A DNA stretch of 64,000 bases from a virus, in IMG/VR virus record IMGVR_UViG_3300045391_000819, positions 67,722 to 131,721 of that record, one strand, 5' to 3'. The translations under genes were made by a program, and so were the position numbers. The notes below the pieces were generated by a model. The model was not told where the DNA came from. It searched no databases and saw only the letters and a program-made list of their open reading frames with translations. Shown piece by piece: positions 4,134 through 63,445 of this stretch (positions within the stretch are counted from its first letter, which is position 1; each line of letters opens with the position of its first letter).

Positions 4134-5705
4134 TTAAGCGTGTTCATAGCATCCCATATCTGGATTACCAACTATTGGATTACCTAAAATATCTCTTGTT
4201 AAACCTACATTTGTACCTGCATTTATACATGGAGAACCTGCTTGTAAACTCCAATCACTTGCCTGATTTACAAACAATGGATCACCTGTTGCTGAATGAG
4301 CTTCCTGTCCAGTTGATGTTCTCCAGTTTGCTAATGTAGTTGAGTTAGTTGCATTAAAAAACCATCTATAACCAGAAAGTGGCCCTTGGAAATATTGATT
4401 ATAATCCATTGTTGGTGCAACGGAATTTCCAATTGTAATAAGTGTTTTACCATCACTACCCATTCTGCAAATAATATTATTCTTTAATGTGAAGCCATCT
4501 CCAGCAGAGGTATACCAAGTTCCCTGATCTACACCATAACCATCTGCTAGGAATATGGTATTATTATAAAAATGTATTTGCCCTGTATTAGTACTAAAAC
4601 ATTCAAAGGCAGCAGATGCACAATTAACAAATAGATTATAATAAAATTCTACAAGACCTCCTGTTGTTACACTTCCTACTCCTCCACCCGGAGTATTTGG
4701 ACTTCCTGTTTTTGAATTAAATACTTGATTGTATCTTATGATTGCATTAGCAGCAGTACCACCAGCATCCAAATGTATAGAATCATTATCTCTATTAGAA
4801 GTACAACTTTCTACAAGCCAATTACTTGCCTGATAACCACCAAAAGCATGACCGTCAGTTGTTAAAGGCACAGTATATGCAATGTTATCTGAAGATGTAC
4901 ATCTAAGGAATGTTCCATCGTTTGCAACCCAAGAATAAAATCCATTACCGTTAAAGGTAGAGGTACAATCTGTTACTGTGAAACCATCAAATCTATCAAT
5001 ATGACATATTCCAAATGCCATGTTTCCATATGCAGTACAGTTTCTAACTGCTGATGCGCCTGTATAAGCACTACCAGTAGCTTCAAAATATATTCCAGAC
5101 CTTCCTGCAAGTCTAACTTCAATATCATGTATCTCAATATAATTCCTAAGAGCAGAACTTTGAGAACCTATAATACAATAATCCCTATTAGAAACTTCAG
5201 GGTTTAGAGTTCCGGGATCAACTGTTGAATAAACATATAGTCTATCAGGATTTGGAGTTGTATCAATGAAATATTTGTTTGCAGAAGTAAGAGCTGCAAG
5301 AGAAGCTACTGGAGTATATAGAGTACCACTAATATATACAGCTGCTCTAGTAGTAGTAACATTAGGACATACAATCCACCACTGATTTGAACCTGCGTTT
5401 GTCCATCCACCCATTACATTAGCAGCATTAATAATAGGCTGTGCTCCTGCCCCATATGCACCAAATGTAATTGGTCTTCCTGCTTGTCCTGAAGATGGAA
5501 CAGTTAATTGTTCCCTCCATGTATCTCCTCGCTTAAAGAGAATAGTATCTCCGGGCTTAAACGTAGAGGAATTGACCTTAGATATTGTCTGCCAAGAAGT
5601 TCCTGTACTTAGACCATTTGCTGCATCACTTCCAGCATTACTTACGAAATAAGTTTTACCACCAGCAAAGCCAGCAGTCATCATCATTGTAAAAGCGAAT
5701 TTCAT
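4134..5705 (-). CDS. Right-handed parallel beta-helix protein (putative polysaccharide depolymerase/tail spike)
   Basis: TYFVSNAGSDAANGLSTGTSWQTISKV...PGDTILFKRGDTW N-terminus, beta-helix repeats, C-terminal DPLFVN...LQAGSPCINAG...D.LGNP...PDMGCYE motif. Confidence 0.85.
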   Translation of the reverse strand: MKFAFTMMMTAGFAGGKTYFVSNAGSDAANGLSTGTSWQTISKVNSSTFKPGDTILFKRGDTWREQLTVPSSGQAGRPITFGAYGAGAQPIINAANVMGGWTNAGSNQWWIVCPNVTTTRAAVYISGTLYTPVASLAALTSANKYFIDTTPNPDRLYVYSTVDPGTLNPEVSNRDYCIIGSQSSALRNYIEIHDIEVRLAGRSGIYFEATGSAYTGASAVRNCTAYGNMAFGICHIDRFDGFTVTDCTSTFNGNGFYSWVANDGTFLRCTSSDNIAYTVPLTTDGHAFGGYQASNWLVESCTSNRDNDSIHLDAGGTAANAIIRYNQVFNSKTGSPNTPGGGVGSVTTGGLVEFYYNLFVNCASAAFECFSTNTGQIHFYNNTIFLADGYGVDQGTWYTSAGDGFTLKNNIICRMGSDGKTLITIGNSVAPTMDYNQYFQGPLSGYRWFFNATNSTTLANWRTSTGQEAHSATGDPLFVNQASDWSLQAGSPCINAGTNVGLTRDILGNPIVGNPDMGCYEHA

Positions 5706-5801: not shown

Positions 5802-6248
5802 TTATGTACCTTTAAGATGATGAACCTCACCATGATAACAAAATTTAAAATCTGTTAATGCCCCAATTCTACCCTCACATTCAATCCATTCACAAGGAGT
5901 ATCAAACAAGTCAAGAGATTTTAATATTAGAGATGCTGAAATTTTAGCACATCCTATATGAGAAGTTCCGCTAGCTCCCTCTACAGAAGAACAATACCCT
6001 GCTACACAAAGAGGCTCTGAACAATTCCACATCTCTTTTAACAATTCAATTCTTGGAACTACATCATGTTCAATATTAATAAAGGTTTGTTTTTCATTCC
6101 ACCTTTCTTTAAAATATTGACCATATCCATAAAACTTATCTACTATAGGACAGAAGGTTGCATCAGGAACAGCCAGCATTACTGGTGCTCTTAAATTAGT
6201 AAAAGGTACAAATATTCTTATGCTACTTTGATTGCTTTTAACCAACAT
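5802..6248 (-). CDS. Hypothetical protein, possible minimal GT-A-fold glycosyltransferase
   Basis: FINIEHDVVP (DxD-like) followed by SHIGCAKIS resembles small phage GT-A proteins. Motif-level evidence only. Confidence 0.4.
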   Translation of the reverse strand: MLVKSNQSSIRIFVPFTNLRAPVMLAVPDATFCPIVDKFYGYGQYFKERWNEKQTFINIEHDVVPRIELLKEMWNCSEPLCVAGYCSSVEGASGTSHIGCAKISASLILKSLDLFDTPCEWIECEGRIGALTDFKFCYHGEVHHLKGT

Positions 6249-55120: not shown

Positions 55121-55196
55121 TGTGGATGATAAGAATCGAACTTACTTCAAGTCACGGAGCTTCAATCCGCCGCTATACCATATCAGCTACATCCAC
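55121..55196 (-). tRNA. trnF: tRNA-Phe(GAA)
   Basis: Stem GCGGA/TCCGT, loop TT-GAA-GC. Confidence 0.88.
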
Positions 55197-55532
55197 ATAT
55201 TTTAAAAAGTCTTGCTCATATCTAGTAGTATGTTCTAATCTATGACAATTAGCACATAATAATTCACATTTGTTTATTTCTTCCAACAAGATTTTCCAAG
55301 ACTTATGAGATACATTCCCTATGTTAAAACTTTTTGTAGATTCATCTTTATGATGAAATTCCAAAGCACCGGGATGATTATATCCACATTTTACACATTT
55401 TCCGCCAAGAAGATTTATAGCTTTAATCTTATTTCTATATCTTCTTATTTTGGTATTACATGAATGACAGCGTGTTCTATGACGTAATTGAAGCTGTCTA
55501 AATTCTCTTTTACAAATTTTACATATATCCAT
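55173..55532 (-). CDS. HNH homing endonuclease 1 (stop codon inside tRNA-Phe)
   Basis: CxxC N-terminus, LGGKCVKCGY...LEFHH...KCELLCANCHRLEH. Confidence 0.88.
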   Translation of the reverse strand: MDICKICKREFRQLQLRHRTRCHSCNTKIRRYRNKIKAINLLGGKCVKCGYNHPGALEFHHKDESTKSFNIGNVSHKSWKILLEEINKCELLCANCHRLEHTTRYEQDFLKYVDVADMV

Positions 55533-56463: not shown

Positions 56464-56537
56464 TACCTGTAGAGGGTCTCGAACCCACACCTTATAGTTT
56501 TTGAAACTATTGCGTCTCCCAATTGCGCCATACAGGT
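56464..56537 (-). tRNA. trnL: tRNA-Leu(CAA), short variable loop
   Basis: Loop TT-CAA-AA; A73. Confidence 0.9.
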
Positions 56538-56539
56538 AT

Positions 56540-56573
56540 AAAAAAGAAAACCCCCCAGTTTTTAGCTGGAGGG
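56540..56573 (-). terminator. Attenuator B terminator
   Basis: CCCTCCAG-CTAAAAA-CTGGGGGG followed by TTTTCTTTTTT, abutting tRNA-Leu(CAA). Confidence 0.9.
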
Positions 56574-56603
56574 TCAAGTTAAATCCCGTAGGATAAAACA
56601 TCT

Positions 56604-56672
56604 TTACATACCACTTCCAGCTCTCAGTTCACTGAGATAATACAGACTGGAATATGATAAGCAATTTTTCAT
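56604..56672 (-). CDS. Leader peptide B, MKNCLSYSSLYYLSELRAGSGM (22 aa)
   Basis: Manual translation. Codons 5-14 are all L/S/Y, the amino acids of the downstream tRNA block. Confidence 0.9.
   Translation of the reverse strand: MKNCLSYSSLYYLSELRAGSGM
56616..56622 (-). promoter_or_regulatory. Antiterminator strand B
   Basis: AGCTGGA is the 7-bp complement of TCCAGCT (56564-56570) in the terminator 5' arm and loop. Confidence 0.78.
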
Positions 56673-56782
56673 TTTGATTTCTGGAATAGTTCTTTTACTT
56701 TTGTAAATACCCAAGTCAATGCGTCGATGATGGGTTCTTTAAAGAAAGCACCAATAACAGCACCAATTAATAGGTTAATCAT
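56669..56782 (-). CDS. 37-aa putative membrane peptide MINLLIGAVIGAFFKEPIIDALTWVFTKVKELFQKSK
   Basis: Manual translation; hydrophobic N-terminus; its TGA overlaps the ATG of leader B (ATGA). Confidence 0.7.
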   Translation of the reverse strand: MINLLIGAVIGAFFKEPIIDALTWVFTKVKELFQKSK

Positions 56783-56812
56783 AATTTATAAGGTTTAATT
56801 AAAAAACGAATG

Positions 56813-56844
56813 CAAATATACGGAAAATTTCTGAAATTACCAAA
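56813..56844 (-). promoter_or_regulatory. Sigma-A promoter of tRNA block B
   Basis: TTTG-N20-TATATTTG. Confidence 0.85.
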
Positions 56845-62705: not shown

Positions 62706-62857
62706 CTGTAAGGGTAGGATTCGAACCTACATGTGGGGATTCAAATAGATACACAAGATTTTTTACCATTAGTGGTCAACCCGATTATATCTATTCTATT
62801 TCACCATTCCACGCCCCTGAGACAAAGGGGTGCGTCTGCCAGTTTCGCCACCTTACA
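62706..62857 (-). ncRNA. 152-nt tRNA-like RNA with an 83-nt variable-arm insertion
   Basis: Acceptor TGTAAGG/CCTTACA, Leu-like D arm, CCCCT-TTGTCTC-AGGGG arm, perfect T arm GTAGG-TTCGAAT-CCTAC. Confidence 0.75.
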
Positions 62858-62864
62858 ATTTTCG

Positions 62865-62936
62865 CTGGAGTGGAGAATTTCGAAATCTCAACCTAATGCT
62901 TAACAGGCAATTGCTCTCCCTTTGAGCTACACTCCA
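62865..62936 (-). tRNA. trnN: tRNA-Asn(GTT)
   Basis: T1:A72, G73; loop CT-GTT-AA. Confidence 0.9.
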
Positions 62937-63319
62937 TTATGATGTTCTTTTCTATGACAATTTGCACACAAAACTACGCACTTGTCAATTTCTTTTAATA
63001 ATCTTTTTCTTCCCCATGTTGCCATACCGCCCACCTGAAAATCTTTTTTACTTGGATCAACATGATGAAACTCTAAACAAGCAATATGCTTTTCTCCACA
63101 TCTCTCACAGGCTAAATTTCTTTTAAGTTCTCTAAACCATTCTTTTAATCTGTGGTTACTTTCTCTGGCTTTATCTATATACTTTTGTTTATTCTTTTGA
63201 TAATGTTCTCGTATATAAATTTTTCTACACTCTTTGCACATTGATTGGAAACCATTTCCTTTCCTATGGAAATTTGTTTCATTTTTTGGTAGATGACATC
63301 TTATACATATTCTTTCCAT
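62927..63319 (-). CDS. HNH homing endonuclease 2 (start corrected to MERICIRC; stop inside tRNA-Asn)
   Basis: CxxC...CxxC N-terminus, CERCGE..ACLEFHHVDP..K.F...KCVVLCANCHRKEH. The ORF-track start overlaps tRNA-Arg. Confidence 0.88.
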   Translation of the reverse strand: MERICIRCHLPKNETNFHRKGNGFQSMCKECRKIYIREHYQKNKQKYIDKARESNHRLKEWFRELKRNLACERCGEKHIACLEFHHVDPSKKDFQVGGMATWGRKRLLKEIDKCVVLCANCHRKEHHNGV

Positions 63320-63323
63320 AAAA

Positions 63324-63355
63324 CAAATATACATAAAATATTCGAAACTACCAAA
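63324..63355 (-). promoter_or_regulatory. Sigma-A promoter of HNH-2 (probably leaderless mRNA)
   Basis: TTTG-N20-TATATTTG; ATG 4 nt downstream. Confidence 0.8.
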
Positions 63356-63372
63356 TATTTTAGAAACTTTCG

Positions 63373-63445
63373 AAGAGCTGATGTGAGTCGAACACATATT
63401 CTTTGCTTAGAAGGCAAGAGTCCTCATCCATTAAACGACAGCTCC
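63373..63445 (-). tRNA. trnR: tRNA-Arg(TCT)
   Basis: Loop CT-TCT-AA; canonical T arm. Confidence 0.88.

Follow-up and report, generated by a model that had tools for sequence, protein, structure and literature searches.

Attenuators that monitor several amino acids at once are known from enterobacteria, where the ilvGMEDA leader senses Ile, Leu and Val, and the thr operon leader senses Thr and Ile. T-box elements bind uncharged tRNA directly, need no translation, and control synthetase and amino-acid genes. Termination-reinitiation coupling at ATGA or TGATG junctions is also well described, for example between the cistrons of the trp operon. The tRNA genes of phages tend to be viewed as aids to codon usage or as a remedy for the loss of host tRNAs; to our knowledge, how their expression is set is largely not known. 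Here, we analyzed a 64,000-nucleotide (nt) stretch of phage DNA (the window), the final 64 kb of the 131,721-bp IMG/VR virus record IMGVR_UViG_3300045391_000819 (positions 67,722 to 131,721), and focused on positions 56,540 to 56,844, where a short leader open reading frame (ORF) precedes an intrinsic terminator and a block of Leu and Ser tRNA genes, and is itself preceded by a 37-codon ORF. We refer to the phage as G000, to its leader-terminator units as units A, B and C (the latter two also as G000_B and G000_C), and to related loci by L-numbers; the region under study is unit B.

On balance, we favor the view that unit B is a trp-type attenuator gating its tRNA block, in which the 37-codon peptide cistron likely hands a ribosome to the leader as a lineage-specific add-on. 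The argument builds on the anatomy of the unit and its conservation, on the way leader composition follows the tRNAs of the block, on the alternative pairings, and on evidence that a counterpart peptide is under coding selection. The point of novelty is tRNA genes as attenuator targets; also new here are the recurrent upstream small-peptide cistron, a first-AUG rule, coding selection on one of the peptides, and two isolated phages with the same design.

Architecture of unit B and comparison with described systems

The elements of unit B, and the tRNA block that follows it, are as follows.

56844-56813, minus strand: promoter B, made up of TTTG, a 20-nt spacer and a TAnnTTTG box; it overlaps the stop of a gene for a 283-amino-acid (aa) glycosyltransferase
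Minus strand, from the promoter box to the 37-codon ORF: untranslated stretch of 30 nt, free of AUG
56782-56669, minus strand: 37-codon upstream ORF, opening at the first AUG, 30 nt past the promoter box
56672-56669, minus strand: ATGA junction, the overlap of the 37-codon ORF stop (TGA) with the leader start
56672-56604, minus strand: leader ORF B, 22 codons plus stop
56660-56631, minus strand: sensor, leader codons 5-14 (Leu-Ser-Tyr-Ser-Ser-Leu-Tyr-Tyr-Leu-Ser), doubling as region 1, the 5′ arm of hairpin P1
56636-56623, minus strand: apical hairpin CTCAG / TGAA / CTGAG at the tip of P1, the candidate pause hairpin of the earlier note
56627-56609, minus strand: region 2, the 3′ arm of P1, which holds AGCTGGA (56622-56616) and ends 3 nt before the leader stop
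56571-56565, minus strand: TCCAGCT, the complement of AGCTGGA, within the terminator 5′ arm and loop edge
56575-56549, minus strand: intrinsic terminator with a 10-pair stem (regions 3 and 4) and a 7-nt loop, followed by a T-run at 56548-56540
56688-56681 and 56654-56647, minus strand: 8-nt repeat TATTCCAG, with one copy at the 3′ end of the 37-codon ORF and one in the sensor arm
56537-56127, minus strand: tRNA block B, five genes (ARAGORN; Ser(tga) from an Rfam match)
56537-56463, minus strand: tRNA-Leu(caa)
56460-56386, minus strand: tRNA-Leu(tag)
56382-56308, minus strand: tRNA-Leu(taa)
56304-56220, minus strand: tRNA-Ser(tga), Rfam match, anticodon loop UGA
56213-56127, minus strand: tRNA-Ser(gct)
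56121-56053, minus strand: degenerate tRNA-Tyr(GTA)-like relic of 69 nt at the end of block B

Region 2 has two alternative partners, the sensor and the terminator 5′ arm, and the terminator ends 3 nt before the start of tRNA-Leu(caa) at 56537. An earlier note, made from the letters of this DNA, had reported the ten-codon sensor, the CTCAG-TGAA-CTGAG hairpin, the 7-bp AGCTGGA/TCCAGCT complementarity and the overlap of the leader ATG with the TGA of a hydrophobic 37-aa ORF, and each of these is present exactly as quoted. Taken as a whole, the note stands in part: its letters and positions are sound, and its contrast with leader C and its Tyr gene are not. Of the tRNAs whose codon boxes it listed, Leu(taa), Leu(tag), Ser(tga) and Ser(gct) are indeed in the block, whereas Tyr(GTA) is represented only by the degenerate relic. 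The anticodon loop of this relic shows no difference from that of tRNA-Tyr in L012 and L008 or of the Tyr-like element in L010. Both the acceptor arm and the T arm of the relic are intact; the D and anticodon stems, in contrast, are weak, and a long variable arm is lacking. Neither ARAGORN nor Rfam finds a recognizable tRNA-Tyr gene in the whole genome. We also observed a similar degenerate Tyr copy in L010, at 4900-4972.

The predicted states of unit B are those of the Escherichia coli trp attenuator (trpL, RF00513): without a ribosome, the 1:2 hairpin forms and transcription would terminate; with a ribosome on the sensor, the 2:3 antiterminator forms; with a ribosome at the end of the leader, termination would follow again. 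In both, the terminator is more stable than the antiterminator and the switch is kinetic. Unlike trpL, unit B has three amino acids and ten codons in place of two Trp codons, has tRNA targets, and scores below Rfam thresholds. With the ilv and thr leaders it shares a short multi-amino-acid leader ORF, mutually exclusive 1:2, 2:3 and 3:4 helices, an intrinsic terminator, and a ribosome position that would decide read-through. It differs from them in gating tRNA genes rather than biosynthetic enzymes, so that the product would relieve the stall directly, as well as in a sensor set matched to the tRNA set of the block, a phage-borne location, a Bacteroidota-type promoter and an upstream cistron that would feed the leader.

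As in a T-box, terminator read-through in unit B would be set by a specific tRNA pool; here, in contrast, the sensor would be a translating ribosome and the target is tRNA genes. The 4-nt overlap of the 37-codon ORF stop with the leader start resembles known termination-reinitiation junctions, and related units have spacings of -1 to +11 nt, while the downstream cistron in unit B is a regulatory leader rather than a protein gene and the coupling is putative. In Sinorhizobium meliloti, rnTrpL and peTrpL are reported to stem from a dual-function attenuator transcript whose small RNA and leader peptide both act in trans (PMC7968998). Unit B would likewise yield a terminated transcript with a function of its own, as mRNA for a small membrane peptide. 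It is unlike rnTrpL in that this peptide would come from a separate upstream cistron and is not known to act in trans. Full-text literature searches returned no description of leader-peptide control of tRNA genes.

Sensor composition, alternative pairing and the predicted switch

Runs of at least 10 Leu/Ser/Tyr codons are rare in this phage: six-frame translation of the 131.7-kb genome gives 263,438 codon positions and only 4 such runs (unit B and three others). The chance expectation of such a run is ~0.0015 in the ~100 frame positions ahead of the unit B terminator, and the corresponding codon runs of leaders A and C each occur nowhere else in the genome. The 135-nt leader-terminator RNA of unit B has a predicted fold of -47.2 kcal/mol (z = -5.96), in which the sensor codons pair with the 3′ part of the leader to form the long hairpin P1.

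We then quantified the alternative pairing between region 2 and the terminator 5′ arm, with terminator arms set by hand and shuffled leaders as controls. For unit B, the duplex reached -15.1 kcal/mol compared with -9.5 kcal/mol for the shuffles (P = 0.029). The same pairing was stronger than in shuffles (P < 0.05) in 18/19 units, though their terminator sequences are unrelated, and the first 15 units combined gave a Fisher P = 3e-19 for the region 2/3 pairing. To model the switch, the ribosome footprint was masked and the transcript was cut just before region 4, the terminator 3′ arm. In the absence of a ribosome, P1 formed and region 3, the terminator 5′ arm, was free; with the A site at codons 3-13, region 3 was paired to region 2; from codon 14 to the stop, region 3 was free again. 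This boundary fell at the sensor end in 15/15 units tested by masked-ribosome folds. In a fold of the whole transcript, the second TATTCCAG copy had no effect on the predicted switch, and the repeat may be a remnant of the origin of the insert or a second partner of region 2.

For comparative analysis, a terminase profile brought in 80 related loci. Those with tRNA islands near the terminase share a common build consisting of a promoter, a short ORF and a terminator ending 0-12 nt before a tRNA. Leu/Ser/Tyr runs of 9-11 codons stand ahead of Leu/Ser(/Tyr) blocks in L010/L011, L012, L008 and Leptolyngbya phage Lbo-JY46 (40-57% identity in the large terminase subunit, TerL), and six relatives, the isolates Lbo-JY46 and phi17:2 among them, have a Leu/Ser/Tyr leader or a leader matched to its own block. 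Leader-by-block matrices are diagonal in G000, L012 and L008, with each of the three leaders fitting its own block best. Moreover, L008 and G000 differ in the blocks that carry tRNA-Arg(acg), tRNA-Asn and tRNA-Asp, and the codons for these tRNAs appear in the leader of whichever block contains them, indicating that leader composition tracks block tRNA content. In Cellulophaga phage phi17:2, a leader with a Gln/Arg/Leu/His/Glu/Pro run lies ahead of Pro, Glu, Gln, His, Leu, Leu and Arg tRNA genes.

Unit B carries the regulatory-codon run and the intermediate terminator expected of attenuators of this kind, together with a predicted antiterminator that has one strand in common with the terminator and an anti-antiterminator that has one in common with the sensor. 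It departs from them in its regulated genes, three tRNA-Leu and two tRNA-Ser in place of biosynthesis or aminoacyl-tRNA synthetase genes. None of the Rfam leader families (release 15) matched at its gathering threshold; the best match here was the trpB motif RF04312 (31 bits vs 59, E = 0.39), and Trp_leader scored 25.6 against a threshold of 41 at unit A. The attenuator reading of the earlier note is supported by the orthologous leaders, the leader/tRNA tracking, the conserved pairing and the masked-ribosome folds. Together, these features give good support to unit B as a leader-peptide attenuator of the classical type that gates tRNA genes, and they predict a response to tRNA supply.

In the mechanism that we propose, transcription would start at the promoter at 56844-56813. 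Fast decoding of the ten Leu/Ser/Tyr codons would bring the lead ribosome to the leader end, where it would cover region 2, so that the terminator would form and transcription would stop 3 nt before tRNA-Leu. Slow decoding of Leu, Ser or Tyr codons, caused by scarcity of the charged cognate tRNA, would hold the ribosome on the sensor and free region 2, which would then pair with the terminator 5′ arm and let RNA polymerase read into the Leu/Ser tRNA genes. The tRNA product would relieve the stall, resulting in negative feedback on tRNA supply. A ribosome from the 37-codon ORF would probably be passed to the leader by termination-reinitiation at the ATGA, and such coupling, useful and dispensable, would help ribosomes to reach the sensor in a host whose translation begins at AUGs close to the promoter. 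This scheme presumes, from the arrangement of the DNA, that both ORFs are translated, that reinitiation takes place and that the unit responds to tRNA supply.

If correct, crAss-related phages would gauge the decoding speed of defined codon sets by means of a trp-style leader and make the matching tRNAs only on demand. This would amount to direct feedback on the tRNA pool and would give a textbook mechanism a new class of targets. Such units would represent sensors, small and portable, that report on decoding capacity for several amino acids together, and the upstream-ORF detail would suggest how leader translation is secured in hosts without Shine-Dalgarno use. The comparison also reveals a group of small membrane peptides for which no role is known. 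The occurrence of the design in two isolated phages, Lbo-JY46 and phi17:2, makes these proposals testable at the bench.

Several features of the relatives and of the leader are recorded here as separate observations. Lbo-JY46 (L109, PP438436.1) has all three leader-terminator units, unannotated, at 1839-1949, 5391-5471 and 6120-6185, along with two or more tRNAs that lack annotation; both its promoters and its relatives resemble the Bacteroidota type though its recorded host is a cyanobacterium. Literature searches for Lbo-JY46 returned nothing. Phage phi17:2 (L110, NC_021798.1) has two leader-terminator units before tRNA blocks on its minus strand, at 16406-16265 and 15464-15290. The second leader seems to have a GTG start and overlaps the annotated 39-aa gp077, and a Ser(tga)-like tRNA, absent from the annotation, overlaps the annotated 33-aa gp078. 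At 56622-56645 of the window, a low-depth contig of soil run X3 that spans the leader carries four single-base indels in two frame-restoring pairs, which hints at a diverged relative with the leader frame kept.

The 37-codon ORF and its counterparts in related units

Next, we asked how the 37-codon ORF relates to the leader. The first 14 residues of its 37-aa product are hydrophobic and its tail is rich in Lys and Glu; residues 2-15 have a mean hydropathy of 1.88, compared with a 95th percentile of 1.72 for ORFs of 30-60 aa in the six frames of G000. An ATG-initiated ORF of at least 30 codons lies upstream at only 3.6% of the ATGA sites in the genome. Gene calls on 4 contigs of other soil samples include the identical ORF, and contigs of four soil runs over the window are either identical to it or cover conserved tRNAs only. 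Database searches returned little: the peptide has no Pfam match, its sole PHROGs match is phrog_13918 (E = 0.14), a phmmer search of 1.84 billion representative proteins yielded only the peptide itself and two long matches of low-complexity type, and ESM Atlas scores for it do not exceed 0.82.

Across the related units, the position of the leader start follows a simple pattern. The leader AUG is the first AUG, 4-27 nt past the promoter box, in 12/19 units, and in every unit in which the leader is not at the first AUG, some ORF starts there. In seven units, an upstream ORF stops within -4 to +11 nt of the leader AUG:

G000_B: 37-codon ORF, 4-nt overlap with the leader
G000_C, 55972-55913, minus strand: 19-codon non-hydrophobic ORF opening at the first AUG after promoter C; 4-nt overlap with leader C (ATGA at 55916-55913)
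L014: 42-aa ORF, 1-nt overlap
L049/L050: 66-aa ORF with two hydrophobic segments, 4-nt gap
L102: 44-aa ORF, 8-nt gap
L111: 44-aa ORF, 11-nt gap
Logan contig (P0008): 53-aa ORF, 8-nt gap, known from gene calls only

Two more units (L049 unit 2 and L058) have a short first ORF ending ~60 nt before the leader. L014 and L102, both from the same metagenome, may represent a single phage, and we therefore count three or four lineages. A hydrophobic N-terminal segment followed by a charged tail is found in six of the seven upstream ORFs, all except the 19-codon ORF, and the N-terminal hydropathy of the upstream peptides is at the 96th-99th percentile of comparable ORFs. The peptide ORFs of L102 and L111 differ at 7/7/15 sites by codon position, with a ratio of nonsynonymous to synonymous substitution rates (dN/dS) of 0.18; in sequence terms, the peptide is a real gene under purifying selection in that lineage. 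L102, L111 and the Logan contig have the gene order of the window (pyruvyl-transferase, glycosyltransferase, promoter, peptide, leader), with an A-type leader in place of the type found in unit B. With its counterparts (P0005, P0006, P0008, P0004 and P0007), the 37-aa peptide shares position, synteny and build, and nothing more.

In a separate comparison of L102 and L111, the A-type leader core (sensor plus region 2; L102 677-775 and L111 2693-2785) differs at 1 of ~63 nt, and the peptide ORF just upstream of it differs at 29/135 nt. This suggests that the A-type leader is under strong nucleotide-level constraint.

These comparisons modify the coupling proposed in the earlier note. Leader B was said to differ from leaders A and C in overlapping an upstream ORF, which is true of A (no upstream ORF; promoter A lies across the terminal-repeat junction) and wrong for C, with its 19-codon ORF and ATGA overlap. 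Leader C in relatives lies 4-7 nt past the promoter with no such upstream ORF. The proposal gains from the recurrence of adjacent upstream ORFs elsewhere and from the first-AUG pattern; it is not unique to B, and it is weaker than originally put. The peptide is likewise not conserved beside Leu/Ser/Tyr leaders, as no ORF stands before the four orthologous leaders in relatives. The junction shows the stop-to-start proximity expected of translational coupling, making dependence of the leader on upstream translation a plausible candidate, and the 37-codon ORF itself is most likely a real gene for a small membrane peptide at the first-AUG position.

A number of points weigh against the reading that we favor. 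The copies of the 37-aa ORF are 100% identical in DNA, which precludes a dN/dS value and leaves selection on this peptide not measurable, and the peptide shows no detectable homology to its counterparts (no alignment by BLASTP; hhalign probability 0.7%). Four Leu codons and one Ser codon lie inside the 37-codon ORF, so that a ribosome would stall before the sensor in a shortage, a poor fit to obligatory coupling unless the polymerase pauses. The AUG of leader B is unpaired in the predicted fold, in an A-rich stretch, and independent initiation is thus possible. In the orthologous leaders (L010/L011, L012, L008 and Lbo-JY46), the AUG lies 4-15 nt past the promoter box with no ORF between, indicating that the peptide is not required for the switch. 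The antiterminator of unit B comprises only 7 contiguous pairs and an imperfect extension (P = 0.029), and the terminator wins in every masked state when the full-length transcript is folded at equilibrium, implying that the switch must be kinetic, as in the trp operon. On the side of the tRNAs, Tyr accounts for 3/10 sensor codons, yet the phage retains only the degenerate Tyr-like relic, and TTG, the codon of the first block tRNA, Leu(caa), is absent from the sensor. Finally, the host phylum is inferred, and the recorded host of the nearest isolate, Lbo-JY46, is a cyanobacterium.

The evidence on the upstream ORF can be read in more than one way. In the stronger version of coupling, the peptide cistron would be a working part of the switch: ribosomes would load at the first AUG, the upstream ORF would have to carry them to the sensor, and the unit would represent a two-cistron attenuator with cargo. 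We advance this version only tentatively. If true, expression of the tRNA block would hinge on the peptide being translated, and the abundant product of termination would double as membrane-peptide mRNA. Conversely, the attenuator may be real and the coupling incidental, with the 37-codon ORF an independent 'moron' gene that exploits a strong promoter and the terminator of the attenuator while the leader initiates by itself. This would account for the four orthologous Leu/Ser/Tyr leaders without any upstream ORF, for the unpaired, A-rich leader AUG and for the overlap itself, since 1- and 4-nt overlaps are normal junctions in this genome; the synteny shared with L102, L111 and the P0008 contig despite another leader type would tie the peptide to the glycosyltransferase module. 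That account is rather unlikely in our view, given the placement of the stop within -4 to +11 nt of the leader AUG in seven units from three or four lineages, the lack of a glycosyltransferase gene beside the peptide in L014 and L049, and the non-membrane 19-codon ORF before leader C, which shares the ATGA junction and is hard to explain as cargo.

It is improbable that the 37-codon ORF is untranslated, the 110 nt from promoter to leader being a non-coding insert that is open by chance in the frame closed by the ATGA. The ORF opens at the first AUG past the promoter and occupies exactly the space of the insert, its N-terminal hydropathy exceeds the 95th percentile of comparable ORFs, and peptides of the same build occupy the same slot in other lineages, one pair of them under purifying selection. 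Speaking for a non-coding insert are the missing homologues in the searches above (none bar itself among the 1.84 billion proteins, none in Pfam, phrog_13918 at E = 0.14), a hydrophobic segment of only ~14 residues, and the ~3.6% of ATGA sites that have such an ORF by position alone. Least probable of all, and by our estimate very much so, is that there is no attenuator: the hairpin would simply end the peptide transcript, leaky read-through or a different promoter would supply the tRNAs, and chance would explain the Leu/Ser/Tyr run. Leu and Ser are six-codon amino acids, three other such runs exist in the genome, and the Rfam match to an attenuator-like motif is far under threshold. On the other hand, the run, the tRNA-abutting terminator and the region 2/3 pairing are kept in relatives without the peptide gene, the 3 nt between terminator and tRNA leave no room for a promoter, and leader content changes along with the tRNA content of the block. 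We therefore retain an attenuator with a dispensable, lineage-specific upstream cistron as the favored reading.

Phage, promoter and tRNA-island context

The record has 69-bp terminal repeats, all genes of the window are on the minus strand, and adjacent genes typically overlap by 1 or 4 nt. The phage sequence is present in soil metagenomes from several studies, and none of the datasets listed for this stretch is from RNA. Its tRNA island spans 63815-54656 and comprises 25 genes by ARAGORN, plus the tRNA-Ser(tga) at 56304-56220 by Rfam. The terminase is closest to that of Lbo-JY46 (52% identity), followed by the terminases of crAss-like phages from Cellulophaga, Flavobacterium and Bacteroides. 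The window contains 13 copies of the Bacteroidota-type promoter motif (TTTG, spacer, TAnnTTTG) compared with 2.35 expected, and 0/100 shuffles reach 13; the extended motif of unit B also heads units A and C and three other tRNA-island genes. From the promoter type and the relatives, we infer a Bacteroidota-type host.

Scans of viral contigs for the glycosyltransferase neighbor led to distant phages (L004 and L005) without terminator-leader units in their tRNA islands, a scan of viral contigs for the neighboring 151-aa protein returned no relatives, and blastn of the region against a phage collection gave a tRNA match only.

Two Zn-finger/HNH-like ORFs sit within tRNA blocks A and C (62927-63397 and 55173-55532, both minus strand). 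Each has its own copy of the island promoter (63355 and 55568, respectively), just 4 nt before the AUG, so that transcription of parts of blocks A and C could bypass attenuators A and C. No internal promoter is present in block B. Lastly, an odd tRNA-like element adjoins tRNA-Asn at 62720-62860 of the window (minus strand) and is conserved, recurring in L099 (~1243-1362) and L008 (6185-6280). Its acceptor and T arms are well formed, the anticodon loop reads GTC and has a pyrimidine as residue 37, and up to ~85 nt are inserted in the place of the variable arm; ARAGORN calls the L008 copy as a 96-nt tRNA-Asp.

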